A stretch of DNA of 38,127 nucleotides from Mycobacteriales bacterium (GCA_046593875.1 JBKJQQ010000004.1:1-38127), one strand, 5' to 3'. Positions 3,108 through 35,780 are shown, numbered from the stretch's first letter. Notes: generated by a model from the letters alone, not told the origin. Numbers and translations: made by a program.

Positions 3108-4037
3108 TTACGCGCAGGTTCCGTTCGGGGGGCCTGAGGCTGCGACGCCGCGGGAGGTGCTGCCGGTCTCGACGGGCAGGGCGGGGTCGGCGCCCCATTC
3201 CTGCCAGGACCCGTCGTAGAGGCTCACGTTCTCGTAGCCGAGCGGGTAAAGCACGAATAGGTCAAAGGCGCCGTAGGTGCCGGAGCCGCAGTAGGTGAGG
3301 ACCTGTTGGCGCGGGCTGACGCCGGCGTTTCGCCAGAGATCAGCCAGGACCTCGGCGGGCAGCAAGGTCTGGGAGAGCGGGTCCACGTTGTCGGGGGCGG
3401 GGACGTTGACGGCCGTCGGGATGTGTCCGGCCCGGTGGGTCGAGAACAGACAGGCGTCGCCGGCGTAGAACGGCGCCGGGAGCGCGTCGACGATGCACAC
3501 CTCAGCGCGCCCGATCCCCTCCTGCACCTGCTCGCGGGTCGCGCTGAGCTCACTTCTGCGGCGGGGGTGGAAGTGTGCCGGCTCGATCACCCTCGTGTCG
3601 GTCTGGATCTCCCGGCTCTCGGCGAGCCACGCGGTCAGACCACCGTTCAGGAGCTTCACCGCGTCGTGGCCGTAGTAGCGCAGTGCCCACCACAGTCGGG
3701 CAGCCCAGGTCCCGCCACGATCGTCGTAAACGACCACGGTGGTGTCGTCCCCGACGCCGAGCCGGCCCATCAAGGCCCCGAACCGCTCAGGGGACAGGAT
3801 GTTCCTCGGGACCGGGTCATCGGGATCGGCCAGGTCGGCCAGGACATCCACGAAAAGCGCCCCCGGGATGTGCCCTTCGTTGTACGCGTCGAGCCCCGAA
3901 GCACCGTGGAAGGTGCCGTCCGCGTCAGCACGGACCCCGTAGCGCAAGTCCACGATCCGCACTGTCGGGTCGTCCAGGTGCTCGGCCAACCACTGCGTGC
4001 TGGCGAGAACCTCGGGGTGCCGGTAGCCCCCGCTCAT
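3108..4037 (-). CDS. sseA: Two-domain rhodanese sulfurtransferase (3-mercaptopyruvate/thiosulfate sulfurtransferase type)
   Basis: Tandem rhodanese architecture. N-terminus is ...TQWLAEHLDDPTVRIVD.... The active-site loop CGSGTYG sits in the second domain. The start ATG overlaps the TetR stop (ATGA at 4035-4039). Confidence 0.85.
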   Translation of the reverse strand: MSGGYRHPEVLASTQWLAEHLDDPTVRIVDLRYGVRADADGTFHGASGLDAYNEGHIPGALFVDVLADLADPDDPVPRNILSPERFGALMGRLGVGDDTTVVVYDDRGGTWAARLWWALRYYGHDAVKLLNGGLTAWLAESREIQTDTRVIEPAHFHPRRRSELSATREQVQEGIGRAEVCIVDALPAPFYAGDACLFSTHRAGHIPTAVNVPAPDNVDPLSQTLLPAEVLADLWRNAGVSPRQQVLTYCGSGTYGAFDLFVLYPLGYENVSLYDGSWQEWGADPALPVETGSTSRGVAASGPPNGTCA

Positions 4038-4708
4038 CAGCGAACCACCCGCCGTGCCGGCGTAGCGGGATCGGTCCGCTTGCGCGGGGACGCCGGAGCC
4101 GCCTGCTCACTCCCCACGTAGGCGCAGATCATGTCGGCCATCGCCTCATGGAACTGCTCGGGGTCCACCGAGGCCGGCTGCGCCTGCCACTGCACGACCA
4201 GCCCGTCATTCAACGCCAGCAGCAGCCGGCACGTGCGGTCCACGTCCAGATCCGCACGCACCAGGCCCTGCATCTTCGCGTGGGACAGGAAACGTCCCAA
4301 TGCCGCGGCACAGTGATCGAACATCGTCGCTGCCGCGTCGCGCGCCCAGACGCTGCGGCTCGACAGCGCCCAGAACTCGGCGAACAGCGGCGACCACGTC
4401 GGGTCGGTGCGGCACGAAGACCACGACGAATCCAGAATGCACAAAATGCTCTCGCGGAAGGACAGCCCAGGTGCGAGCTGGGCTGCGGTCTCCGAGATCC
4501 GCCGGTTCACCTGCTCCAGCAGAATCGTCTGGAACAAGTTCTCCTTGCTGGTGAAGTGCCCATAGAGCGCGCCCTTCGCGATCCCGCACTCCGCCGTGAT
4601 CTCCTCGACCTTCGCCGCCTCATAACCACGACGAGCGAACACGACCGCAGCCGCGTCGAGGATCTTCGCGCGGGTCTGCTCCTTGCGCTGCTGCGGCAAC
4701 GTCGCCAT
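4037..4708 (-). CDS. TetR/AcrR family transcriptional regulator
   Basis: N-terminal HTH: RAKILDAAAVVFARRGYEAAKVEEITAECGIAKGALYGHFTSKENLF. Start set at ATG 4708 (MATLPQQRKE...). A perfect palindrome lies 36 bp upstream. Confidence 0.85.
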   Translation of the reverse strand: MATLPQQRKEQTRAKILDAAAVVFARRGYEAAKVEEITAECGIAKGALYGHFTSKENLFQTILLEQVNRRISETAAQLAPGLSFRESILCILDSSWSSCRTDPTWSPLFAEFWALSSRSVWARDAAATMFDHCAAALGRFLSHAKMQGLVRADLDVDRTCRLLLALNDGLVVQWQAQPASVDPEQFHEAMADMICAYVGSEQAAPASPRKRTDPATPARRVVR

Positions 4709-4743
4709 GCCCACGTCCTCGTCTCGACCCGATCCATCCGTAT

Positions 4744-4767
4744 GCCTGACTGACCGGTCAGTCAGGC
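4744..4767. promoter_or_regulatory. 24-bp perfect palindrome; candidate TetR operator
   Basis: GCCTGACTGACCGGTCAGTCAGGC is its own reverse complement. It lies 36 bp upstream of the TetR start codon, at the head of the five-gene operon on the minus strand. Confidence 0.6.
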
Positions 4768-5311
4768 TACAACGGCAGGCACCGAACGTCCACCCACTGC
4801 CGTTCTCCTCGGTGGGAGAGGCGGGTTGCGGATGACGGCGCTCCTGTTTTTTCGCTCCCGCGCAGTAGGACGAGCACCCGCAGCGGCGTAGGACGTCCGC
4901 CAGGCCCACCGGCCGGGTGGGACTTCTTGGCTGGCTTCCTCCAGGCCGTCAGAACAGCCCAGGCGCCGGTGGCGCGCAGCGTCATCGTGACGACCGGCAT
5001 TGTTAGCCCGGTGGCCCGCTGCCGGCCTGATAGTCGACGCGTTGAACATCAGGGACCAGTCCCGCCGAGGGCGACGACCGAGCCGCTCCCGGCCACTCAG
5101 GCCGGGACAAGCGGGTGCGGTGCCTTCTGCAACTGATCATGAGATAGATACAACTGACTCGTGATCCTGGGCCACTCCGATCTACGCTTCGTACAGATCT
5201 TCAGCGCTGCTCGCACCCGCCCCGGTGCGCCGGGGACGACCGGCCGGCGGCTGCTGGCCCCGCCTGTGGTCGGCGAGGACAGTCTTTTGCCCCTACAACG
5301 AGGTGGCAGAC

Positions 5312-6233
5312 ATGACTGGGCAGACTGATGACGCGCTGATGCTGATGGAGCGGGCCGTGGCTTCACGCGATCCGCTGGAACTTGCTCTGGCAGGGTTCCT
5401 GTCGGCCTACAAGGGCCGGACGTTCGACAAGCAACGCCGAGTCATCAAGCACTACGTAGACTGGTGCCTGCAGAACGACCTGCCGCCGCTGCAGGCGAAG
5501 CGCCCGCACATCGAGCTGTTCGTCCGCCGGGGCGAGACCCAGCCGTGGTCGGAGTCCTACATCTGCCAGCACTTCATCGGCGTCCAGTCCTTCTACAAGA
5601 CCTGCGTGCGCGACGACTTGCTGCTTCGAAACCCCTGCCGAGTTCGTGGCCGCGCCTCCCGTCAACGAGGAAGGTCAGCAGCGGACGTTCCTCTCGCCGC
5701 TGGAGTTCGCCGCCTTCCTAGATGCATCACGCAAGGCCGGACCGGTCGAGCATGCCGCCGCCGCGCTGATGGGCCTGTCCGGCCTTCGGGTCGCCGAGAT
5801 GTGCAGCCTGCGGGTCGAGTCACTGAGCCAGGACGGCGGCTACGACAGCCTCACGATCATCGGCAAGGGCGGCAAGCCCGCCGACATCCCGCTCCCGGTG
5901 CCGGTCATGCGCGCCGTCCACGTCGTCGTAGAGGGCCGCACGAGTGGGCCCCTGTTGCGCAACCGAGCCCGGGAACGCGCTGACCACTCTGGACGCCCGG
6001 CGCATGGTGAACCGCATCGCAAACACGGCCGGGTGCAGGCACATCACTCCGCATGGCCTGCGCCGCACCTCCTGCACCGCCGGGCTGGTCAGCGGCGTCC
6101 CGATGCGCGACATGCAGATCGCGTGCGGCACGCCGACCCCCGCACCACCGGCTTGTACGACATGGCCAAGAACAACAAGGACCGGCACGCCAGCCACCGC
6201 GTCGCGTCGTTCCTCGCCGGCATGACCGGGTAA
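5312..6233 (+). pseudogene. Tyrosine recombinase / phage-type integrase, disrupted by at least 3 frameshifts
   Basis: The N-terminal SAM-like domain is in frame 2 (MTGQTDD...LLLRNP). The catalytic domain continues in frame 0 (AEFVAAPPVNEEGQQRTFLSPLEF...GLSGLRVAEMCSLRV...). It then runs in frame 1 (GNALTTLDARRMVNRIANTAG.RHITPHGLRRT...MQIACG) and returns to frame 0 (HADPRTTGLYDMAKNN...). Shifts are near 5636, about 5970 and about 6128. R, HxxR, H and Y catalytic residues are all recognisable. Confidence 0.8.
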
Positions 6234-6354
6234 GCACTTCGGCTGGCGGGTGGCATCAGCGGCGTAGAGCCGGCGTTCGGTCCGACATAGAAGACGATGA
6301 CGTTGTGGTGGGCGCCTACCGGCGGGCTCGCTGCGATCGTGACGCTCAGGGTCG

Positions 6355-7020
6355 TCAGACCGTACGTGCGGTGGGGAGTGCGGCTGCGGCCCATTCCGGG
6401 AAGCCGTCGACCAGCCGTAGGGCACTTCGTCCAGCGGCCGATAGCCGGCGTACCGCGTCGTCGGCGTAGATGCAGTACGGCCCGCGACAGTAGGCAACCA
6501 CGACTAAATCCGCCGGCAGGTCCCGCAGCCACGGCTCAAGCTCGCCGGGTGGCACGTTGACGGCGCTCGGGATGTGTCCGGCTTCGTACTCAGCCGGCGG
6601 CCGCACGTCCAGCACGACGACGTCCCCCGCCCGGAGGCGGACGGCCAGTTCGTCGCGTCCGATGGTCGCCAGTTGCGTCCGGTCGCCGAGGTAGGCATCG
6701 GCAAGCTCGTCGAGCTGCGCTACGTGCTCGGCCGCGACGTCCCGCATCGCCCGCCACAGCGCGCCGACCTGCTCGCTGGCCAGCGAGTAGAACACCCGGG
6801 TGCCGTCCCGGCGGGTGCGGACCAGCCCGGCGCGCAGCAGCTGCTGCAGGTGCTGAGAGGTGTTTGCGACGCTCTGGTCGATCTGCCCGGCCAGGTCCTC
6901 GACTCGGCGCTCGCCCTGGGCGAGCACGTCCACGATCTCGGCACGCCGGCCGTTGCCGAGCGCCTTGGCGACGGACGCGAGCCCCTCGTACAGCGCATCC
7001 TTGGCGTGACGATCTCCCAC
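6355..7020 (-). CDS. ArsR/SmtB-family transcriptional regulator fused to a C-terminal rhodanese domain
   Basis: wHTH: VEDLAGQIDQSVANTSQHLQQLLRAGLVRTRRDGTRVFYSL. Rhodanese: VVVLDVRPPAEYEAGHIPSAVNVP...VVAYCRGPYC. GTG start with a GAGGAGG SD. Confidence 0.85.
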   Translation of the reverse strand: MGDRHAKDALYEGLASVAKALGNGRRAEIVDVLAQGERRVEDLAGQIDQSVANTSQHLQQLLRAGLVRTRRDGTRVFYSLASEQVGALWRAMRDVAAEHVAQLDELADAYLGDRTQLATIGRDELAVRLRAGDVVVLDVRPPAEYEAGHIPSAVNVPPGELEPWLRDLPADLVVVAYCRGPYCIYADDAVRRLSAAGRSALRLVDGFPEWAAAALPTARTV

Positions 7021-7030
7021 CCTTACCTCC

Positions 7031-7087
7031 TCAAGCGATCGTTTGACAATACACCTGACCGCTGGCAGTCTTCAAGTACTTACTTGA
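7031..7087. promoter_or_regulatory. Divergent control region with two related TCAAG...CTTGA-type palindromes (candidate ArsR-rhodanese operators)
   Basis: TCAAGCGATCGTTTGA at 7031-7046 has 14 of 16 positions symmetric. TCAAGTACTTACTTGA at 7072-7087 is 7-2-7 symmetric. TTGACA lies at 7043-7048. The region is flanked on each side by a GAGGAGG SD. Confidence 0.45.
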
Positions 7088-7105
7088 TGAGGAGGCGTGG
7101 CGGTG

Positions 7106-8452
7106 ATGGAGACGATTCCCGTGGTCGACGACGGCCTGGGCAACACGACCTGGTTGGTCGATCTGGGCGAGGGACGGGCGCTGGCGGTCGATGCCTCGCG
7201 TGACCTGCGTGCTGTGCAGCAGACGGTGCAGGCGCGGGGGCTCGAGATGGCCTTCGCGGCCGACACGCATCTGCATGCCGACTTCGTCACTGGGGCGGTC
7301 GACCTGGCGCGGTCCGGGGCGACGCTGCTCGCCTCGGCGGCTGGCGGTCGCGAGTACCCGCACACCGGCCTGCACGATGGTGACGAGATCGACCTGGGTG
7401 GCCTGACGCTGCGGGCGCTGGCCACCCCGGGTCACACCGACGAGCACCTGTCGTTCCTGTTACTGGACGGCACCCGTCCGCTCGGGGTGTTCACGGGCGG
7501 GTCGCTCATCGTCGGCGCCGCAGCGCGCACCGATCTGGTGAGTCCGGAGCGGACCGAGGAGCTGACGCGGGCGCAGTGGCGCTCGCTGCAGCGGCTGGTC
7601 ACGCTGCCCGACGACGTGCAGGTGTGGCCGACGCACGGCGCCGGCTCATTCTGCTCGGCGCCTCCCGGGGCGGAACGCAGCAGCACCATCGGGCGGGAGA
7701 AGGCGAGCAACGCGCTGCTGCGCGCCGGCAGCGAGAACGCCTTCGTCGCTGCGCTGCTGGGCGGACTCGGGTCCTACCCCGCCTACTTCCGCCGCCTGGG
7801 CGAGGTCAACCGGCGCGGCCCTGTCCCGGTGGACCGCGCCCCGACGCTGAGCGCGCAGACACCGCAGCAGGTCTCCGCCGCAGCCGATAGCGGCGCGCTC
7901 GTCATCGACGTCCGGCCAGTGACCGCGTTCGCCGCAGGACACATCGCCGCCGCCGTCTCCATCCCGTTGCGGCCGGTGTTCGCCACCTGGCTCGGCTGGA
8001 CCACCGGGCTCGAGACGCCGCTGGTGTTCGTCCGCGACGCCGGCCAGGACCCTGACGAGATCGTCTGGCAGGCGCGCAAGATCGGATACGAGAACCTCGT
8101 CGGCGAGCTCGACGGCGGAATGGCCGCCTGGTCGGCGGCAGGACTGCCGGTGCGGACCACCACTGTGCTCGGCGCCGACGAGCTGGACGGTCGAGCGATC
8201 GTCGACGTGCGCCAGCGCAGCGAGTTCGCCACCGGACACGTGCCCGAGGCCGCCAACGTCGAGCTCGGCGCGCTGGCCGAGGGCGCACCCGCTGACGTCG
8301 GAGCGGGCGTGGCCGTCATGTGCGGGCACGGGGAGCGGGCGATGACCGCCGTGAGCCTGCTCGAACGCGCCGGCCACGACGACGTCGCCGTGGTCGTCGC
8401 CGGGCCCGACGACTGGGCGCAGGCAACCGGCCGCGCCGTGGCCCAGTCGTGA
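7106..8452 (+). CDS. MBL-fold metallohydrolase fused to two rhodanese domains (persulfide dioxygenase-sulfurtransferase type)
   Basis: MBL motifs THLHADF (HxHxD) and TPGHTDEH. First rhodanese has no Cys in its loop (VFVRDAGQD). Second has the catalytic loop CGHGERA. ATG 7106 is preferred over the track start 7097 because the GAGGAGG SD ends at 7095. Confidence 0.8.
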   Translation: METIPVVDDGLGNTTWLVDLGEGRALAVDASRDLRAVQQTVQARGLEMAFAADTHLHADFVTGAVDLARSGATLLASAAGGREYPHTGLHDGDEIDLGGLTLRALATPGHTDEHLSFLLLDGTRPLGVFTGGSLIVGAAARTDLVSPERTEELTRAQWRSLQRLVTLPDDVQVWPTHGAGSFCSAPPGAERSSTIGREKASNALLRAGSENAFVAALLGGLGSYPAYFRRLGEVNRRGPVPVDRAPTLSAQTPQQVSAAADSGALVIDVRPVTAFAAGHIAAAVSIPLRPVFATWLGWTTGLETPLVFVRDAGQDPDEIVWQARKIGYENLVGELDGGMAAWSAAGLPVRTTTVLGADELDGRAIVDVRQRSEFATGHVPEAANVELGALAEGAPADVGAGVAVMCGHGERAMTAVSLLERAGHDDVAVVVAGPDDWAQATGRAVAQS

Positions 8453-9747
8453 GCGCCTCGCCACGCGGCGCGACCGTGAACACCGCGCCGATCCGGCTGG
8501 GACTGCGGGCGAACGCCGCGCAGTTCACCTTGCTCGTCGCGGTCAACGCCCTGGTCGGCGGGATGCTCGGCCAGGAGCGCACCGTCCTGCCGCTGCTGGC
8601 CGAGCAGGAGTTCGGGCTGACCGGCTTTACCGTCGCGACCACGTTCATCGTCGCGTTCGGCCTGACCAAGGCAGTCACCAACTTCGCTGCCGGCGCGCTG
8701 TCCGACCGCTACGGCCGCAAGCCGGTCCTGGTCGCCGGTTGGCTCGTCGGCCTCCCCGTGCCGCTGCTGCTCATATTCGCACCCAGCTGGGGCTGGGTGG
8801 TCTTCGCCAACGTGCTGCTCGGCGTCAACCAAGGCCTGACCTGGTCCACCACGGTCATCATGAAGATCGACCTGGTCGGACCGGCGCGCCGCGGCCTGGC
8901 GATGGGCCTCAACGAGGCCGCCGGCTACCTCGCCGTCGGCGCCACCGCGCTGGCCACCGGCTACATCGCCGCCCAGCACGGCCTGCGGCCGGCCCCGTTC
9001 TTCCTCGGCCTGGCGTTCGTCGCCCTCGGCCTCGGACTGTCGGCCACGGTCGTGCAGGAAACTCGCGACTACGCCCGGCTCGAGGCCGCTACGCATGCGC
9101 CCGTTGCGCGTACTGACGGGCGGGCGCACCAGCCCGAGGACCTGAGCACTCGGCAGGTCTTCCGACGAACCACCTTCAGCGAGCCGGCGCTGTCCTCGGT
9201 TAGCCAGGCCGGACTGGTCAACAACCTCAACGACGGGCTGGCCTGGGGGTTGTTCCCGCTGCTGTTCGCCTCCGCCGGCCTGTCCGTCGCACGAATCGGT
9301 GTGTTGGCTGCGCTCTACCCAGCCGTGTGGGGCCTGGGTCAGCTGGTCACCGGCGCCGCCTCCGACCGACTCGGCCGCAAGAACCTCATTGTCGCCGGCA
9401 TGCTGCTGCAGGCCGCCGCCCTCGCGCTCGTCGCCGCTGTCGACAGCTTCGCGCTCTGGGCCGTCGCCGCCGTCACGCTCGGCGTCGGCACCGCGCTGGT
9501 CTACCCCACCCTGCTGGCCGCGATAGGCGACGTCGCCCACCCGGCCTGGCGGGCCCGGTCCATCGGCGTCTACCGGCTCTGGCGCGACGCCGGCTTCGCC
9601 GTCGGCGCGCTGCTCGGCGGCATCATCGCCGATTTCTACGGCCTGCGCACGGCAGTCGCCGTCGTCGCCGCCATCACAGCCGCCTCCGGACTGCTCGTCG
9701 CCATCCGGATGTACGAAACGCACCAACCCGTCCCGAACAACACCTAG
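8449..9747 (+). CDS. MFS transporter
   Basis: Twelve-TM-like hydrophobic pattern. MFS loop motif GALSDRYGRKPVL, repeated as GAASDRLGRKNLI in the second half. GTG start overlaps the upstream stop (GTGA at 8449-8452). The earlier part of the track ORF is R-rich shadow. Confidence 0.8.
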   Translation: MSASPRGATVNTAPIRLGLRANAAQFTLLVAVNALVGGMLGQERTVLPLLAEQEFGLTGFTVATTFIVAFGLTKAVTNFAAGALSDRYGRKPVLVAGWLVGLPVPLLLIFAPSWGWVVFANVLLGVNQGLTWSTTVIMKIDLVGPARRGLAMGLNEAAGYLAVGATALATGYIAAQHGLRPAPFFLGLAFVALGLGLSATVVQETRDYARLEAATHAPVARTDGRAHQPEDLSTRQVFRRTTFSEPALSSVSQAGLVNNLNDGLAWGLFPLLFASAGLSVARIGVLAALYPAVWGLGQLVTGAASDRLGRKNLIVAGMLLQAAALALVAAVDSFALWAVAAVTLGVGTALVYPTLLAAIGDVAHPAWRARSIGVYRLWRDAGFAVGALLGGIIADFYGLRTAVAVVAAITAASGLLVAIRMYETHQPVPNNT

Positions 9748-9847
9748 CGCAGCGGGTCCGCTCATCGGCAAAGCCGGACGTTCCCTCCTCGCCACCTGCG
9801 TTCGCTATCTGGCTGACTAGAAGATCGGACCCGCCGGGACTCGCCGA

Positions 9848-9863
9848 GGTGATCGCACCCGCC
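9848..9863 (+). repeat. Third copy of the GGTGATCGCACCCGCC core seen at 555 and 670
   Basis: Exact 16-nt match to 555-570, in the same orientation. It lies about 100 bp downstream of the MFS stop in a 0.5-kb stretch with no convincing gene. Confidence 0.8.
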
Positions 9864-10260
9864 CGTTGCTGAGCAGGAGCTCGCGCGGTCGGAGCAGATT
9901 CCACGGGAGGCGTCAGATATCCGCGCCGTCCCTCTCGTCGTTCTCGGAAGGCGCTGGGGCGGTGAGAAGCACTCCGGTGCGCGACCGTCAGCGCGCTCCG
10001 TAGGTCGTGTCGCCCGGCCGCTTGTTCTCCTGGACGACCTTCATGCGCAGCTCCGCGCATCCCCCTGCTAGTTGTAGTCGTCGGAGCGCCACCCAGAGTC
10101 GCGTTGTCGCGGTGCGCCCAGGCCGCCGAGAAGCAGCCCGCGTACGCGCACGGCGTCCGAGGCAGACGTGTCCGCGATTCACGGATGCTTGACCCGGGCG
10201 GGCGTCAGGAAGACTCTGCGCAGGACGGCATACGGGGGTGTGCCACGGACTGGGGGGCCC

Positions 10261-11379: not shown

Positions 11380-12327
11380 CTACCGCGCCTGGCTGCTGGT
11401 GTAGCTCTGGCGGGCCTGCTCGAACTGGACCTCGGTGTGCCGGGCCAGCCCCAGAGCGCTGGCCGCGGTCAGGATCGTGAGGCCCACGACGGCCGCGCGC
11501 AGCGCCAGGTGCCGTCGTGGGGCAGGCGCGAGCAGGGCCCGCACCCGGTCACCTGCGCTACCGCGGACCGCTCCGAGGACGACGGACTGCAGCGGCCCCG
11601 CCGCGAAGTCGGGTGCAGGCGCGCTGGCAAGGCTGGCGCGCGCCAGAGCCTGCGCCGCGGTGCGACGGCTCCCGACCTGCCGGGCGGCGTCTTCGTCGGC
11701 CCAGCGCTCGACCGCAGCGACGACGGCCGTGGTCAGCGGACCGAGCAGGGGGTTCGCCGCGACGGCGAGCTCAGTGAGCTGGACGTAGAGATGGTGCCGG
11801 TGTCGCAGATGGGAGTGCTCGTGGGCGAGCAGGACACGCTGCTCGGCAGGGGGCAGGGCCGCGAGCATCGCCGTGGACACGACGATGCGCCCGCGCCAGC
11901 CGGGCAGGGTGAAGGCGTCGGGGCGCTCGTCGTCCACGATGATCAGACCGGCGTCCCCCGGGCCCAAGGCGCGGCACGTGAGCTGCGAGGCAGTGAGGTC
12001 GCGCCCCGCGGCGACCAGGCGCAGTACCGCAGCACCCAGGAGGACAGCCACGACAGCAGCGACGGGCCAGCCGACGACGGGGGGCAGCGGCACGGTGCTG
12101 TGCACCTGCTCGGCCGACCACTGGCCTCGGGCCGCCAGGACCGGCAGCTGCGCCAGCGCGTCGAAGGCCAGGACCGCCAGGACGAACCCGCAGCTGACCG
12201 CCGTGACCAGGCCGGCACCGGTCAGCAGCCGTGCGGTCGCCCGCGGCGGCAGCCGCGAGCCCAGCCGGCACGCGGTCCCGCGGAGCAGCAGGGCGGCGAT
12301 CAGCGGGACAGCAGCCAGCGGGTCCAT
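11380..12327 (-). CDS. M56-family (BlaR1/MecR1-like) membrane metalloprotease sensor
   Basis: Zinc motif HEHSHLRHRHH (HExxH) after N-terminal TM segments. The start lies 1 nt after the stop of the BlaI-family gene. Confidence 0.8.
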   Translation of the reverse strand: MDPLAAVPLIAALLLRGTACRLGSRLPPRATARLLTGAGLVTAVSCGFVLAVLAFDALAQLPVLAARGQWSAEQVHSTVPLPPVVGWPVAAVVAVLLGAAVLRLVAAGRDLTASQLTCRALGPGDAGLIIVDDERPDAFTLPGWRGRIVVSTAMLAALPPAEQRVLLAHEHSHLRHRHHLYVQLTELAVAANPLLGPLTTAVVAAVERWADEDAARQVGSRRTAAQALARASLASAPAPDFAAGPLQSVVLGAVRGSAGDRVRALLAPAPRRHLALRAAVVGLTILTAASALGLARHTEVQFEQARQSYTSSQAR

Positions 12328-12328
12328 C

Positions 12329-12727
12329 TCAGTCGACGGGCTGACCGGCGGGACCCGGCTCGGTCGGGCGCAGGAGGTCAGCGAGCAGCTGCTCGTCCCC
12401 GGGTCCGAGGTCGGCGACGAAGTGCGCCAGCGCGGAGGCCCGGTCCGGACCGGCCGCCAGCAGCTGGCTCATCCGCCGGCCGGTGAGGGCCGCGGCGACG
12501 TCCTTCTCGGCGGTGACCAGGCTGTAGGCGTAGGACCGGCCGGCCGACTCCCGGCGCAGCGCGCCCTTCCCGACGAGCCGGCTCAGCGTGGTCATGACCG
12601 TGGTGTAGGCCAGGCCGTCGCCGAGCTCGGCCTGCGTCTGTCCCGGCGTCAGCGGGCGGCCGGCAGCGGCCAGGACAGCGAGCACCCGGCGCTCCAGCTC
12701 CCCCCGGCCCCGACGCGGTGCCCCCAT
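12329..12727 (-). CDS. blaI: BlaI/MecI/CopY-family transcriptional repressor
   Basis: About 130-aa winged-helix protein: GELERRVLAVLAAAGRPLTPGQTQAELGDGLAYTTVMTTLSRLVGKGALRR. Paired with the M56 sensor immediately downstream. Confidence 0.8.
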   Translation of the reverse strand: MGAPRRGRGELERRVLAVLAAAGRPLTPGQTQAELGDGLAYTTVMTTLSRLVGKGALRRESAGRSYAYSLVTAEKDVAAALTGRRMSQLLAAGPDRASALAHFVADLGPGDEQLLADLLRPTEPGPAGQPVD

Positions 12728-31977: not shown

Positions 31978-33327
31978 TCACGGGGCGGTGATCGTGAAAC
32001 CGGCCTTCTCGGCGTTGTCGTAGTCGTCGTCGATGTGCACGACCGGGTGCTCCGCCCGGTCGAGCAGGCTCGCAGCGATGCTGGCCCGGAAGCCGCTGGC
32101 GCAGTGCACCCACACCTTGTCCGACGGCACCTCGGCCAGCCGGTCCTGCAGCTCGCTGAGCGGGATGTGCACCGAGCCCTCGATGAAGCCGTGCGCGCGC
32201 TCGTCGTCGCGGCGCACGTCCAGGACGACCGCGCCCGGCTCCGCGGCGACCTGCTGGAAGTCGGCGACGGAGTAAGAGCGCATGTCGATGCCGTCGGCGA
32301 GTGAGTCCAGCTCGCCCGTCGCGGCGCCGGCCGGTCGCTCGATCCCGATGCGCACCAGCTGCCGCTGCGCGTCCGCGATCTGCTCGGGGCTCTCGCCGAT
32401 CAGCGTGACCGGCTCCCCCCACGGGACGATCCAGCCGACGTAGGTCGAGAACTGGGTCCCCATCGCCACCGACACCGTGCCGGCGAGGTGCCGGCCTGCG
32501 TACGTCGAACGGTCCCGGAGGTCGACGACCCACTCGCCGGCCCGGATCCGCGCGGCGAGCTCGGTCGGGTCGACGGGGGTGGCCGGTGACAGGTCCGGGG
32601 CGTCCGGCCCCTCGGCGTTGCGCGGTCCCATGTAGGCGTAGTAGGTGGGGTAGCCGGTCAGGCCGGCGACGAGCCGGTCGACGAACGCCTGCTCGTCGTC
32701 CTCGAGCAGCGCGTCGTTGCGGCTCTTCTCGGTCCCGATGGTGCTGTCGCTGCCGCCGCTGGCCCCACCGGAGGAGCAGAAGCTGCCGAAGCCGTGGGTC
32801 GGGTACACCGGCGTCTCGTCCGGGAGCAGGTCGGCCAGCCGGCGGGCGGAGCGCCACTGCTTGCGGGTGAGCTCGTCGGTACGGTCCGTGCCGAGCAGGT
32901 CGGTGCGCCCGACGCTTCCGTACAGCAGCGAACCGCCGGTGAACACGGCGGCCGGACCCTCACCGTCACTGATGACGTAGGACACGTGGGTGTCGGTGTG
33001 TCCGGGGGTCTCGAGGACCCGGACGGTCATGGTGCCGGCCGACAGGTCGTCACCGTCGTGCACGGCGCACCGCTCGAAGGACACCTCGTCGCGACCGGCC
33101 ACCACGTAGGTCGCACCGGTCTTGCGGGCCAGCGCCAGGCCACCGGTGACGTAGTCGTTGTGCAGGTGGGTCTCGACCACCAGCGTCGCGGTCACCCCCA
33201 GCTCGCCCAGCAGGCTCTCCACGCGATCGAGATCGCGCTGTGGGTCGACGACGACAGCGCACGTCCCGTCACTGACGACGTAGCTCCGGTCGCCCAGGTC
33301 CGGTGTCTCGATCACGTCGACGCGCAT
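31978..33327 (-). CDS. MBL-fold metallohydrolase fused to two rhodanese domains (paralog of 7106..8452)
   Basis: THLHNDY (HxHxD) and TPGHTDTH. First rhodanese loop lacks Cys (LIGESPEQ). Second has VHCASGFRAS. ATG 33327 has a GGAGG SD. Collinear similarity to 7106..8452 is visible by eye. Confidence 0.8.
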   Translation of the reverse strand: MRVDVIETPDLGDRSYVVSDGTCAVVVDPQRDLDRVESLLGELGVTATLVVETHLHNDYVTGGLALARKTGATYVVAGRDEVSFERCAVHDGDDLSAGTMTVRVLETPGHTDTHVSYVISDGEGPAAVFTGGSLLYGSVGRTDLLGTDRTDELTRKQWRSARRLADLLPDETPVYPTHGFGSFCSSGGASGGSDSTIGTEKSRNDALLEDDEQAFVDRLVAGLTGYPTYYAYMGPRNAEGPDAPDLSPATPVDPTELAARIRAGEWVVDLRDRSTYAGRHLAGTVSVAMGTQFSTYVGWIVPWGEPVTLIGESPEQIADAQRQLVRIGIERPAGAATGELDSLADGIDMRSYSVADFQQVAAEPGAVVLDVRRDDERAHGFIEGSVHIPLSELQDRLAEVPSDKVWVHCASGFRASIAASLLDRAEHPVVHIDDDYDNAEKAGFTITAP

Positions 33328-33451
33328 GCTGCCTCCAGGTGAAGTGTCGTTGCTCCTTGTCCGTACATTAGTGTCGGGAGCCTCCTCCCGCAAGGCCCCC
33401 GGGCAGGGCTGCTGCCCGCCGACGACGAAAGGCAGCGTGAGAACGTCCGAC

Positions 33452-35239
33452 ATGCCCAGCACCTCCGGTCGGCCGCGCAGCGCCCCCGCCGGTGGTCGCG
33501 GGCGGCAGGTCCTTCTGACGGTCGTCCCAGCCTCCAGGTGGCTGCTGTCGTACCGCCGCGAGTTCCTGCGCCGCGACATCCCGGCAGGCCTTACCGTCGC
33601 GGTGCTGCTGATCCCCCAGTCGATGGCCTACGCCGCCCTGGCAGGGATGCCGCCCGAGGCGGGCCTCTACTCGGCGATCGTGTCTCTGCTGGTCTACGCC
33701 GCGCTCGGGAGCAGCAGCTTCATCTCCGTAGGACCGGTCGCGATCGACTCGCTCCTGGTCGCCGCGGCAGTCGGACCCCTCGCGCAGGGCGACACGACGC
33801 TGTACGTCGCCGCGGCCGGGGTGCTCGCCGTGATGACCGGGCTGATCCAGCTGGCTCTCGGGACGTTACGGCTCGGCGCCCTCGTCAACTTCCTCTCCGT
33901 GCCCGTCATCAGCGGCTTCACCTCGGCCGCGGCCATCACGATCGGCGCCAGCCAGGTCAAGGACCTGCTCGGTCTCGACGTGCCCAAGGGGCAGGGCAGC
34001 AGCTTCCTCGACACGCTCCGGGCGACGCTCGCTGCAGCGGACACCGTGCACGCGCTCACTGCGCTGATCGCCGGCATCACCCTCGTGACGCTGGTCGCTG
34101 CGCGGCGCCTCGTCCCCCGGGTGCCTGCCGCGCTCGTCGTCGTGGCGCTCTCGACGGCCGCCGTAGCCCTGCTGCGCCTGGACGCTGACGGCGTCACGAT
34201 CCTGGGCGAGGTACCTGCGGGCCTCCCGCGGCTCGTCGTCCCGAGCCTCGACGTCGACCTCGCCCGGCAGCTGCTGCCCGCCGCGTTGACCATTGCCGTG
34301 ATCTCGTACATGGAGAGCATCAGCACGGCCAAGGCCTTCGCCACCCGCACGCGCACGCGGGTGCAGCCCAACCAGGAGCTGCTGGCCGTCGGGGCAGCCA
34401 ACCTCGCCGCCGGGTTGTTCCGGGGCTTCTCCGTCGCCGGCGGGTTCTCCCGGGGCGCCGTCAACTTCCGCGCGGGCGCCAAGACGCAGCTGTCCGGCGT
34501 CACCGCAGCAGCCGTCCTGCTCGTGGCGGTCGCCTTCCTCACGCCGCTGTTCTTCTACCTGCCCAAAGCCGTCCTGGCCGCCGTGATCGTCGTCGCGGTC
34601 GCCTCCCTCGTCGACGTCCGCGGGGCCCGACGGATCCTGCGCGTGCAGCGGGCCGACGGGATCGGCCTGCTGGTGACCTTCTTCGCCACGCTCCTCGTCG
34701 GCGTCGCGCAAGGTCTGGCCGTGGGGGTGGCCGCCAGCCTGCTCGTCTTCATCGCCCGCACCGCTCGCCCGCACGTCGTCGAGGTGGGGCGCGTCAAGGG
34801 GACAGCGCGCTACCGCAACGTGGAGCGCTGGGCCACCCGCACCGACGACCGCGTCGCCATCCTGCGCATGGACGGCCCGCTGTACTTCGCCAACGCCCGC
34901 TTCTTCGAGCAGCGGGCGCAGGCGCTGGTCGGCGACCGGCCCCTCGTCGAGCACCTGGTCGTCGTGGCGAGCGGGATCGGCGACATCGACGCGAGCGGTA
35001 CGGAGCTGCTCATCGAGCTGGACGACGAGCTGAAGGACGGCGGGGTGCAGCTGCACCTGGTCACCGTTCGCGGCCCCGTGCGGGACACCCTGGCCAACAC
35101 CGACCTGTGGGAGGCGATGCTGACCTCCGGACGCATCCACACCACCATCGAGGCAGCGGTGCGCGCCATCGCTGGACCGAACGGGTCCCCGCTGCTCAAG
35201 CCCGACGACGAGGTCTCCTCGCCTGCGGACCTGGTCTGA
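33452..35239 (+). CDS. SulP-family anion transporter with a C-terminal STAS domain
   Basis: SulP N-terminal signature GLTVAVLLIPQSMAYAALAGMPPEAGLYSA. Multiple TMs. STAS-like C-terminus (VAILRMDGPLYFANARFF...IDASGTELLIELDDELKDGGVQLHLV). Confidence 0.85.
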   Translation: MPSTSGRPRSAPAGGRGRQVLLTVVPASRWLLSYRREFLRRDIPAGLTVAVLLIPQSMAYAALAGMPPEAGLYSAIVSLLVYAALGSSSFISVGPVAIDSLLVAAAVGPLAQGDTTLYVAAAGVLAVMTGLIQLALGTLRLGALVNFLSVPVISGFTSAAAITIGASQVKDLLGLDVPKGQGSSFLDTLRATLAAADTVHALTALIAGITLVTLVAARRLVPRVPAALVVVALSTAAVALLRLDADGVTILGEVPAGLPRLVVPSLDVDLARQLLPAALTIAVISYMESISTAKAFATRTRTRVQPNQELLAVGAANLAAGLFRGFSVAGGFSRGAVNFRAGAKTQLSGVTAAAVLLVAVAFLTPLFFYLPKAVLAAVIVVAVASLVDVRGARRILRVQRADGIGLLVTFFATLLVGVAQGLAVGVAASLLVFIARTARPHVVEVGRVKGTARYRNVERWATRTDDRVAILRMDGPLYFANARFFEQRAQALVGDRPLVEHLVVVASGIGDIDASGTELLIELDDELKDGGVQLHLVTVRGPVRDTLANTDLWEAMLTSGRIHTTIEAAVRAIAGPNGSPLLKPDDEVSSPADLV

Positions 35240-35291: not shown

Positions 35292-35780
35292 TTGACCCCA
35301 CCCCCAGGTCCCGGCGCCGCGCCGCCCCCCCGTCCCCCGTTGCGAGACGGCGAGTGCGCCCGGCGGCTCGGCCGACAGCCGACGGAGAGCATCGAGGGCG
35401 GGTTCGCCGTGGTGCTCAACTGCATCGACGGGCGAGCCCAGCAACCCCTTCTGGACTGGGTGCGCTCCCAGTACGACGTCGACTACGCAGACGTCGTCAC
35501 CGAGCCCGGGATCGACGCCCTGCTCGCGGCAGCACCACCGACCGCGCGAGATGCCGTGCTGGACAAGGTGTGCGTGTCCCGACTGGCGCACCTGTCGTGC
35601 TACCTCGTGGTCGCCGGTCATCACGACTGCGCCGCCAACCCGGTGCCCCGCCCCGTGCACGAGGAGCAGATCCGCGTCGCCGTGGCTTGGCTGCGCACCG
35701 CCCTGCCCCGCTTCGAGGTCGCCGGGGTGTACCTGGACGAGACGTGGTCGGCCTGCCCCGTCGCCGACGGCACGGGTTGA
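35292..35780 (+). CDS. Small beta-carbonic-anhydrase-like protein (putative Zn site CxDxR...HxxC)
   Basis: The TTG start is preceded by an AGGAG SD 5 nt upstream. NCIDGR and VVAGHHDCAAN align conceptually with the beta-CA CxDxR and GHxxC zinc-ligand motifs. High GC3. The protein is much shorter than canonical beta-CAs. Confidence 0.5.
   Translation: MTPPPGPGAAPPPRPPLRDGECARRLGRQPTESIEGGFAVVLNCIDGRAQQPLLDWVRSQYDVDYADVVTEPGIDALLAAAPPTARDAVLDKVCVSRLAHLSCYLVVAGHHDCAANPVPRPVHEEQIRVAVAWLRTALPRFEVAGVYLDETWSACPVADGTG

Follow-up and report, generated by a model that had tools for sequence, protein, structure and literature searches.

How could a repressor of the ArsR family sense its inducer when its DNA-binding domain holds no cysteine? 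The question is raised by a three-gene module at positions 6355-9747 of a stretch of 38,127 nt from a Mycobacteriales bacterium (JBKJQQ010000004.1; the whole stretch is called the window below). Here a regulator that joins an ArsR/SmtB winged helix-turn-helix (wHTH) to a C-terminal rhodanese domain is encoded divergently from a CstB-like metallo-β-lactamase (MBL)-rhodanese enzyme and a major facilitator superfamily (MFS) transporter. The regulator very probably acts as a repressor at two palindromes that serve both transcription units. Whether this autoregulated repressor also captures sulfane sulfur on one or both of its rhodanese cysteines, and is thereby released from DNA, is in our judgement an evenly balanced proposition; repression at the palindromes is much more secure than the identity of sulfane sulfur as an inducer acting through C178 and C183. 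If the latter is right, the window protein would be an ArsR-family reactive-sulfur sensor whose receptor is no longer in the wHTH but in a sulfurtransferase domain fused to it. The genes and protein parts concerned are as follows.

6355..7020, minus strand: regulator gene, 221 amino acids (aa), ArsR/SmtB wHTH plus C-terminal rhodanese (open reading frame, Pfam, NCBIfam, AlphaFold2 model)
6688..7020, minus strand: cysteine-free wHTH half for DNA binding and dimerisation, spanning about residues 1-111 with the long helix α5 at 83-111 (PDB match to Mb0332, AlphaFold2 secondary structure)
6367..6669, minus strand: rhodanese domain of the regulator, about residues 118-218 (Pfam, 1.4e-15; structural matches)
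6472..6489, minus strand: codons of the regulator loop C178-R-G-P-Y-C183 (read from the sequence; family motif)
7097..8452, plus strand: CstB-like MBL / pseudo-rhodanese / rhodanese gene, 451 aa (matches to 3tp9 and 3r2u; Pfam Rhodanese twice)
8449..9747, plus strand: MFS transporter gene, 432 aa, cysteine-free (Pfam MFS_1)

The regulator gene opens with GTG, with GGAGG five nt 5′ of the start, and its product passes the models of the ArsR/SmtB family above their curated cut-offs (NCBIfam HTH_metalloreg for the ArsR/SmtB subfamily, 75.3 bits against 55; Pfam HTH_5, 38.4 bits against 22, residues 25-68; HTH_20, 28.8 bits against 27, the helix-turn-helix matches together spanning residues 22-70). 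The C-terminal half matches Pfam Rhodanese over residues 123-212 with 58 bits (cut-off 22.2). Exactly two cysteines are present, C178 and C183, both within AYCRGPYCIY and none in residues 1-177, just as the original prediction had described a cysteine-free ArsR wHTH with its only two cysteines in the CRGPYC loop of a fused rhodanese. The same prediction had set the protein apart from the cysteine-sensing BigR/SqrR type, and rightly so: because the wHTH lacks the α2 and α5 cysteines, a sensor of this type (cluster 4 of the sequence similarity network, SSN) was rejected, and with the BigR equivalog model NF040642 the protein reaches 41.7 bits where 155 are required.

In the AlphaFold2 (AF2) model, with a mean predicted local distance difference test score (pLDDT) of 81, a canonical wHTH is followed by the long α5 helix, which continues into the rhodanese domain; C178 comes right after strand 173-177, and C183 sits in the first turn of the next helix. 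The best PDB match of the N-terminal half is M. bovis Mb0332(1-100) (2KKO/3GW2, 7e-19, 46% identity), and matches of the regulator also include HlyU, CzrA, SmtB, CadC and NolR. For the C-terminal half the best solved match and top Foldseek match is the stand-alone rhodanese BH2092 (3NHV/3O3W), which has the loop CWGPAC; lp_1913, YgaP and the rhodanese domains of 3tp9 match as well. No solved structure with both domains was found among the PDB sequence and structure matches. C178 aligns with the loop cysteine of BH2092 and of 3tp9, and by fold and loop cysteine the domain appears to be a rhodanese of the catalytically competent type. Such a domain could do something other than sensing, as a tethered sulfurtransferase or as a dimerisation or partner-docking module on a repressor that is constitutive or otherwise controlled; many rhodanese domains are catalysts or have become inactive scaffolds, as has the middle one in the enzyme next door. 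We hold this to be hardly credible here. Where an ArsR repressor autoregulates from conserved operators, carries an invariant reactive motif in its sole extra domain and has no second place for a ligand, the simplest reading is a one-component sensor, and the wHTH lacks every known inducer site of ArsR proteins that involves cysteine.

The architecture recurs well beyond the window. The regulator fits the ArsR-rhodanese fusion family of the Rv0324 type, defined by a wHTH and a rhodanese loop Y-C-R-G-x-x-C, and the fusion class itself is already known: Rv0324 and Mb0332 belong to it, and databases label it 'metalloregulator ArsR/SmtB'. In an exhaustive HMMER search of 1.84 billion representatives, clustered at 50% identity, 382 clusters reach E ≤ 1e-30 and 2316 reach E ≤ 1e-10; at 90% identity there are at least 8000 clusters. 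Conservation of the loop was judged from an unbiased sample of 131 full-length sequences, the query together with 130 representatives at 38-57% identity to it. It was not judged from the 80 genomic loci described below, because these were recruited with patterns including VAYCRGP and the argument would be circular. C178 is found in 122 of the 131 sequences, R179 in 121, G180 in 118, P181 in 94 and C183 in 110 (about 84%), while the N-terminal half is entirely cysteine-free in 86. Read from these sequences, the family signature is Y-C-R-G-P-(Y/F)-C on a usually cysteine-free wHTH. The family spans phyla, with members in M. tuberculosis, Rhodococcus, Bacillota and the plasmids of lactic acid bacteria. 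Homologs nearest to the window protein come from Geodermatophilaceae (Blastococcus, Geodermatophilus). What has been written on Rv0324 consists of network or drug-tolerance studies, for example on bedaquiline tolerance, and a full-text literature search, in which subscription journals are thinly covered, found no paper on the mechanism of ArsR-rhodanese fusions; the original prediction had called the sensing mechanism of the class uncharacterised, and the systems-level literature found agrees with this. Also noticed were three giant proteins, P0129 (2327 aa), P0131 (1197 aa) and P0150 (1654 aa), which consist of 8-16 tandem units that resemble regulator residues 102-213 (the linker helix with the rhodanese domain).

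In the gap between the divergent genes three features are proposed.

7028..7049, unstranded: operator O1, 22 bp, with the core TCAAGCGATCGTTTGA at 7031-7046 (conserved palindrome, predicted)
7069..7090, unstranded: operator O2, 22 bp, with the core TCAAGTACTTACTTGA at 7072-7087 (conserved palindrome, predicted)
7046..7075, minus strand: putative regulator promoter, with -35 TTGAAG at 7070-7075 (inside O2), an 18-nt spacer and -10 TATTGT at 7046-7051 (touching O1)

The motif TCAA-N8-TTGA occurs twice in the 38-kb window, where 0.02 matches are expected by chance, and no further operator copy was found in the window even at 2 mismatches to the 22-bp consensus. We compared 80 genomic loci (L001-L080) with regulator homologs of 51-75% identity, mostly from Actinomycetota. 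The 200 nt ahead of the regulator gene hold the motif in 77 of them, or 77 of the 78 with enough upstream sequence, and the two related palindromes noted in the original prediction are therefore conserved across related loci. The related loci, 778 kb in all, contain 128 matches; 120 fall in the zone upstream of the regulator, and most of the other eight are still within the module, for example in the MBL-MFS gap of L076 and as a 42-bp-spaced pair in L014. The consensus from the 120 sites is T-NN-TCAAG-N6-CTTGA-NN-A (22 bp). Divergent loci usually have two sites and co-directional loci one, at about -20; where there are two, their starts are 41-42 bp apart, or four helical turns, in 33 of 43 loci, as they are in the window (41 bp). 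The core also stands upstream of distant homologs on plasmids of Bacillota and Enterobacter. Rv0324 has a different palindrome upstream, TTCCAA-N(6-8)-TTGGAA (L081 5960-6000), and the regulator copy on the Rhodococcus opacus B4 plasmid pROB01 (L083 4940-4995) has one of the TTCCAA...TTGGAA type too, though it adjoins an MBL-MFS pair. That the Rv0324-like subclade, with the loop CRGAYC, uses another palindrome suggests that recognition helix and operator have co-diverged.

The position of the operators says how they might work. O1 abuts the Shine-Dalgarno sequence of the regulator (CCTCC, 7026-7030) and overlaps a TTGACA hexamer (7043-7048) pointing to the MBL operon, and O2 abuts the Shine-Dalgarno sequence of the MBL gene (GAGGAGG, 7089-7095). 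A perfect TTGACA in the flank of the proximal operator, directed towards the enzyme operon, is present in 31 of 40 two-site loci (window included); a -35-like TTGAA(T/C/G) in the regulator-side half of the distal operator, followed 16-18 nt on by a TAnnnT that abuts the proximal operator, is present in 26 of the 40 and in the window. Each operator would thus overlap a -35-like hexamer of one unit and lie at the other's ribosome-binding site, the expected place of its transcription start, a geometry that fits classical repression of both divergent units together with autoregulation by a regulator predicted to bind there. The 85-bp control region of the original prediction holds if the enzyme starts at ATG 7106 and fails if it starts at GTG 7097, where the gap is 76 bp. 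Among the three candidates (GTG 7097, GTG 7103 and ATG 7106) one of the latter two is favoured because of the Shine-Dalgarno sequence at 7089-7095.

Gene linkage is conserved as well. An MBL gene, an MFS gene or both adjoin the regulator in 64 of the 80 loci; the arrangement of the window, with MBL-rhodanese-rhodanese and MFS genes divergent from the regulator, is found in 32, and a co-directional regulator-MBL-MFS order in 16. Where MBL and MFS genes are both present they are nearly always adjacent and co-oriented. In loci that lack them the neighbours include a cysteine desulfurase of the NifS/IscS type, a thioredoxin-like protein, and an enzyme dependent on pyridoxal phosphate (PLP) that looks by eye like one of cysteine or methionine metabolism. 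Homologs of the regulator are carried by 198 annotated plasmid records. The pROB01 module is identical in layout, its enzyme 63% and its MFS protein 66% identical to those of the window, and it stands back to back with a module comprising a CsoR-type regulator, DUF2892, DUF302, TauE/SafE and MBL genes (L083 5001-10000); the adjacency of these two sulfur-oxidation cassettes, each with its own kind of regulator, suggests that they are not redundant. A Cytobacillus plasmid combines the regulator with a short MBL, an MFS protein 48% identical to that of the window, methyltransferases, DUF302 and a rhodanese, and on an Enterobacter Tn3-type element the regulator is divergent from an unrelated MFS gene.

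The transporter is in fact the most constant partner. It adjoins the regulator in 61 of the 80 loci, ten of which have no MBL gene nearby, whereas the MBL gene is kept in 53. This could mean that the regulator senses thiosulfate or sulfite, its loop reacting with thiosulfate or binding the anion, and that the module mainly induces an exporter when the anion builds up. The loop indeed opens with C-R, as in thiosulfate sulfurtransferases, whose loop is CRKGVT, and R179 is among the best-kept residues of the family sample; by sequence, the isolated rhodanese domain is closest in the PDB to the thiosulfate sulfurtransferase 1yt8. The thiosulfate proposal overlaps with capture of sulfane sulfur and does not exclude it, because reaction with thiosulfate yields the same Cys-persulfide. 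No anion-only mode of binding can be read from the sequence, and CstR, SqrR and BigR, which regulate operons with a persulfide dioxygenase (PDO), respond to persulfides and not to the products. As an account of its own we regard it as improbable.

We favour a mechanism in which regulator dimers would occupy both 22-bp palindromes on the same face of the DNA, 41 bp apart, and so repress the regulator gene itself and the MBL-rhodanese/MFS operon. The signal is placed in the rhodanese domain because the wHTH lacks a cysteine-based ArsR inducer site and the sole added domain has a reactive one. It would be received at C178, in the arginine-containing loop that resembles those of thiosulfate sulfurtransferases. 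Rhodanese cysteines in this place are known to be persulfidated by donors of sulfane sulfur, and C178 would presumably take sulfane sulfur from low-molecular-weight persulfides or polysulfides, possibly also from thiosulfate, to give Cys-SSH; in most members C183, five residues on at the start of a helix, is placed to attack this persulfide or a second one, which may yield a disulfide, trisulfide or polysulfide bridge. The loop cysteines lie in the regulator peptide AYCRGPYCIYADDAVR. The long α5/linker helix would pass the change in loop and helix on to the DNA-binding domains, so that the protein comes off the DNA. Derepression would supply the CstB-like enzyme, which may remove persulfide sulfur as sulfite or thiosulfate, and the MFS protein, which would probably export the product. 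As judged from gene content, the regulons of the family (a CstB-like enzyme and transporter, a thioredoxin system, sulfur-mobilising enzymes) are best accounted for, if a single signal is sought, by stress from persulfides or polysulfides.

Extended to the whole family, the proposal becomes more tentative, and we would sooner doubt than accept it in full: ArsR-rhodanese fusions would be one-component reactive-sulfur sensors across phyla with a YCRGPxC receptor, Rv0324 and the thioredoxin operons of lactobacilli included and the window module as the archetype, and the partner enzyme may be a hitherto unrecognised form of persulfide dioxygenase that lacks the aspartate ligand, perhaps with a three-histidine site. 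If this is true, Rv0324 would link host or bacterial H2S and persulfides to a drug-tolerance regulon, and the same chemistry would govern the plasmid thioredoxin operons of food lactobacilli.

Several observations weigh against the favoured mechanism; they concern the regulator and its promoters, some of its neighbours and, lastly, the enzyme. The cysteine-cysteine bridge is not universal, because C183 is kept only in the 110 members counted above. The AF2 model is of a monomer and has no bearing on allostery. A strict sigma-70 consensus scan of 6300-10200 returned no promoter, so that we infer the promoters from the looser conserved pattern TTGAAx-16/18-TAnnnT.

Among the neighbours, a methyltransferase that depends on S-adenosylmethionine (SAM) and resembles ArsM is divergent from the regulator in three loci (L027, L037 and L048, at about 5000-5900). 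These proteins score 195-214 bits against the arsenite methyltransferase subfamily model, whose cut-off is 263, and their substrate could be sulfide, selenide or arsenite. They are one ground for supposing that the regulator, true to its ArsR/SmtB membership, is a sensor of metalloids or metals, in which a dimer uses its four loop cysteines to hold As(III), Sb(III), selenium, tellurium or a soft metal, and the rhodanese is Acr2-like or handles selenium; weak NCBIfam matches of the regulator to the ChrE and seleno-rhodanese models point the same way. We think this very unlikely. No ars, cad, czc or acr3 gene lies beside the regulator in the window or the 80 loci, the scores against all specific metal-sensor equivalog models are far under their cut-offs, and regulons of the CstB-like and thioredoxin types are unlike metal efflux. 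An arsenate reductase loop of the Acr2/Cdc25 type (C-X5-R) was tried and rejected as a description of the regulator loop, which has I, V or A where that motif has its arginine.

A stronger challenge comes from about 100 plasmids of Lactobacillales (Lactiplantibacillus, Leuconostoc, Weissella and relatives), where the regulator heads an operon of thioredoxin, trxB, DsbA, trxA and flavin adenine dinucleotide (FAD)-oxidoreductase genes. In L. plantarum pRS20D_B (L085 3977-8498) the loop of the regulator is CRGRLC, and at about -30 there is a perfect palindrome, CTATTCAATAAATTATTTGAATAG. A survey of plasmids named the cluster 'arsR-trxA-trxB-frnE-gshR' and read it as one of oxidative stress, leaving the rhodanese domain unmentioned (PMC8190607). 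Such a regulon fits general disulfide stress equally well. The regulator might accordingly be a general thiol-oxidation switch with no specificity for sulfane sulfur, akin to RexT or to two-cysteine switches, in which C178 and C183, a pair five residues apart that could form a disulfide, or C178 alone, are oxidised by peroxide, hypochlorite, diamide or electrophiles. The lactic acid bacterial regulon itself does not discriminate between a disulfide and sulfane sulfur as the signal, because thioredoxin systems also reduce persulfides. Two features of the family make us regard the switch as unlikely, if a serious contender: the dominant conserved partner is an MBL of the persulfide-dioxygenase kind that carries rhodanese domains, often accompanied by DUF302, rhodanese, TauE-module and cysteine desulfurase genes, and a full rhodanese fold serves as the receptor, its arginine-bearing catalytic loop being an enzyme site built for sulfane sulfur.

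The enzyme of the module aligns end to end with the MBL-rhodanese structures 3tp9 (1e-70) and 3r2u (2e-46), and its architecture is that of CstB and the type III enzymes: an MBL domain, an inactive rhodanese, an active rhodanese and two conserved cysteines. The MBL motif HLHADF lies at residues 58-63, the middle rhodanese is cysteine-less with the loop VRDAGQD, and the C-terminal rhodanese has MCGHGERA with C409; C186 in HGAGSFC and C409 correspond to the two conserved cysteines of CstB (C201 and C408). The succession of MBL (HxHxD-F), rhodanese and rhodanese (CGHGERA) given in the original prediction is thus borne out, as is the inactivity of the middle domain in so far as it lacks the cysteine, its 'Asp loop' being only an approximate description. 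The key residues are H58, H60, D62, H113, H180, C186 and C409, with Gly135. It is the last that matters for the label 'dioxygenase-type', which would follow from homology to CstB and in which one defining feature is missing: of the 2-His-1-Asp iron site (H79, H135 and D154 in ETHE1), the equivalents H58 and H113 are present and the canonical aspartate is replaced by Gly135. Where 3tp9 and 3r2u have FSGD and BpPRF has FTGD, motif 4 of the enzyme reads FTGG (G135, codon at about 7499-7501). In a profile search the domains foreseen for the regulator were recovered (HTH_5, HTH_20, Rhodanese), while Lactamase_B did not reach E 0.01 on the enzyme, and the NCBIfam Blh equivalog model, whose cut-off is 625 bits, gives it 36. 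Because of G135 and the weak Lactamase_B and Blh scores, persulfide dioxygenase activity is not assured, although an actinobacterial type III enzyme, ScPDO (SCO0618), is active with glutathione persulfide (GSSH; PMC7533328).

The glycine looks like a trait of a clade and not a sign of decay, because it recurs in 43 of 55 MBLs linked to the regulator, in a second CstB-like protein of the window (31978-33579) and in the MBL of the CsoR/TauE module of pROB01; the pROB01 MBLs with FTGG are at L083 3530-4909 and 6604-7956. In the glycine class the second histidine of HxH is invariant, whereas it is often glutamine in a short class that contains the aspartate. We speculate from this pattern that glycine-class enzymes may have shifted to a three-histidine metal site.

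The MFS gene can start at GTG 8449, overlapping the TGA stop of the MBL gene (8450-8452), which is the GTGA translational coupling that had been predicted. Its product matches Pfam MFS_1 with 166 bits (cut-off 33.4, 1.4e-48), and no specific subfamily model was passed above its cut-off; the nearest solved structures, NorA (9e-7) and YajR, are distant. It would probably export the product of the enzyme, such as sulfite or thiosulfate.

Other genes of the window touch on sulfur metabolism or adjoin the module. A two-domain rhodanese like 3-mercaptopyruvate sulfurtransferase (3108-4037, minus strand; 166 bits against a 250-bit cut-off) could supply sulfane sulfur from within the cell; a TetR-family gene lies immediately upstream of it (4037-4909, minus strand), and it is 2.3 kb from the module. 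The second CstB-like MBL-rhodanese (31978-33579, minus strand; 533 aa) is 36% identical to the module enzyme. It is not an obvious target of the regulator, because there is no TCAA-N8-TTGA nearby, and it is probably under other control. Divergent from it is a SulP sulfate-permease/STAS gene (33326-35239, plus strand), followed by a putative carbonic anhydrase gene (35292-35780, plus strand). Just 3′ of the module (11380-12727, minus strand) stand a BlaI/Penicillinase_R repressor gene and then a gene for a BlaR1/M48-M56-like membrane peptidase, a sensor-repressor pair unrelated to the module, and an ABC transporter is also encoded there, near the pair. On the other side, a tyrosine recombinase of the phage-integrase family (5225-6233, plus strand) adjoins the regulator gene; it is split over the overlapping frames 5225-5983 and 5646-6233 and is probably a frameshifted remnant. 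Horizontal acquisition of the module was considered and set aside: scans of the window, whose G+C content is 72%, for base composition and tRNA genes gave no tRNA and no clear compositional break around the module, and the integrase remnant is the sole hint.

To our knowledge the bacterial sensors of sulfane sulfur (CstR, SqrR/BigR, FisR, and repurposed proteins of the OxyR and MarR types) all sense through cysteines of their core folds. A sensor that borrows the complete active site of a sulfurtransferase would be a different design. It would also join things that have been annotated separately, namely an actinobacterial sulfur module, the 'arsR-trx' plasmid cluster of Lactobacillaceae, and Rv0324, which is implicated in bedaquiline tolerance and has no known signal. 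Apart from how large and widespread the family is, the interest of the system lies in the ease with which it can be tested, as it offers a defined operator, a defined regulon (CstB-like enzyme and MFS protein) and two residues, C178 and C183. The exchange of aspartate for glycine in the linked enzymes is a separate lead for metalloenzymology.

Among known systems, the closest in logic combine a repressor with enzymes of persulfide metabolism and a transporter. SqrR and BigR are, like the window regulator, ArsR wHTH repressors encoded beside persulfide-dioxygenase/rhodanese and sulfur-transporter genes, and for them as for the window regulator the presumption is that sulfane sulfur lifts repression by acting on a pair of cysteines. 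SqrR and BigR (SSN cluster 4 of Giedroc and co-workers) sense through α2 and α5 cysteines of the wHTH (PMC10054925), whereas the pair of the window regulator lies in the loop of its fused rhodanese. The CstR-CstB system of S. aureus and the ScCsoR-ScPDO-TauE system of S. coelicolor (PMC7533328) share the scheme of a repressor, a type III PDO-rhodanese fusion and an exporter, and differ in having a regulator of the CsoR fold and a TauE exporter where the window has an ArsR-rhodanese and an MFS protein; the window regulator belongs to neither the SqrR/BigR nor the CstR family. The CstB-type structures 3r2u and 3tp9 align with the window enzyme over its full length; this enzyme keeps both CstB cysteines and has glycine for the aspartate iron ligand.

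Other proteins resemble parts of the regulator. BH2092 of B. halodurans shares the C-x-G-P-x-C loop and differs in having no DNA-binding domain. RexT, a peroxide sensor of the ArsR family that controls trxA2 in Anabaena, works with a vicinal pair of redox cysteines and parallels the family members that head thioredoxin operons on the plasmids of lactic acid bacteria; it lacks a rhodanese domain and carries its cysteines in helix α3 of the wHTH. A split analogue of the fusion is found in YgaV-YgaP of E. coli, an ArsR regulator and a rhodanese encoded as two proteins of one operon. YgaV keeps SqrR-like cysteines, and the wHTH of the window regulator has none. The catalytic cysteine of YgaP is persulfidated or nitrosylated, and its structures 5hbl and 5hbo match the model of the regulator rhodanese. 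Rv0324/Mb0332 has the two-domain architecture of the window regulator, with the loop AYCRGAYC, which we read for Rv0324 by translating the rhodanese half from the M. tuberculosis genomic locus, and an N-terminal domain 46% identical. It differs in that no MBL or MFS gene lies beside it in that locus, and in a TTCCAA...TTGGAA palindrome in place of the TCAAG...CTTGA of the window.

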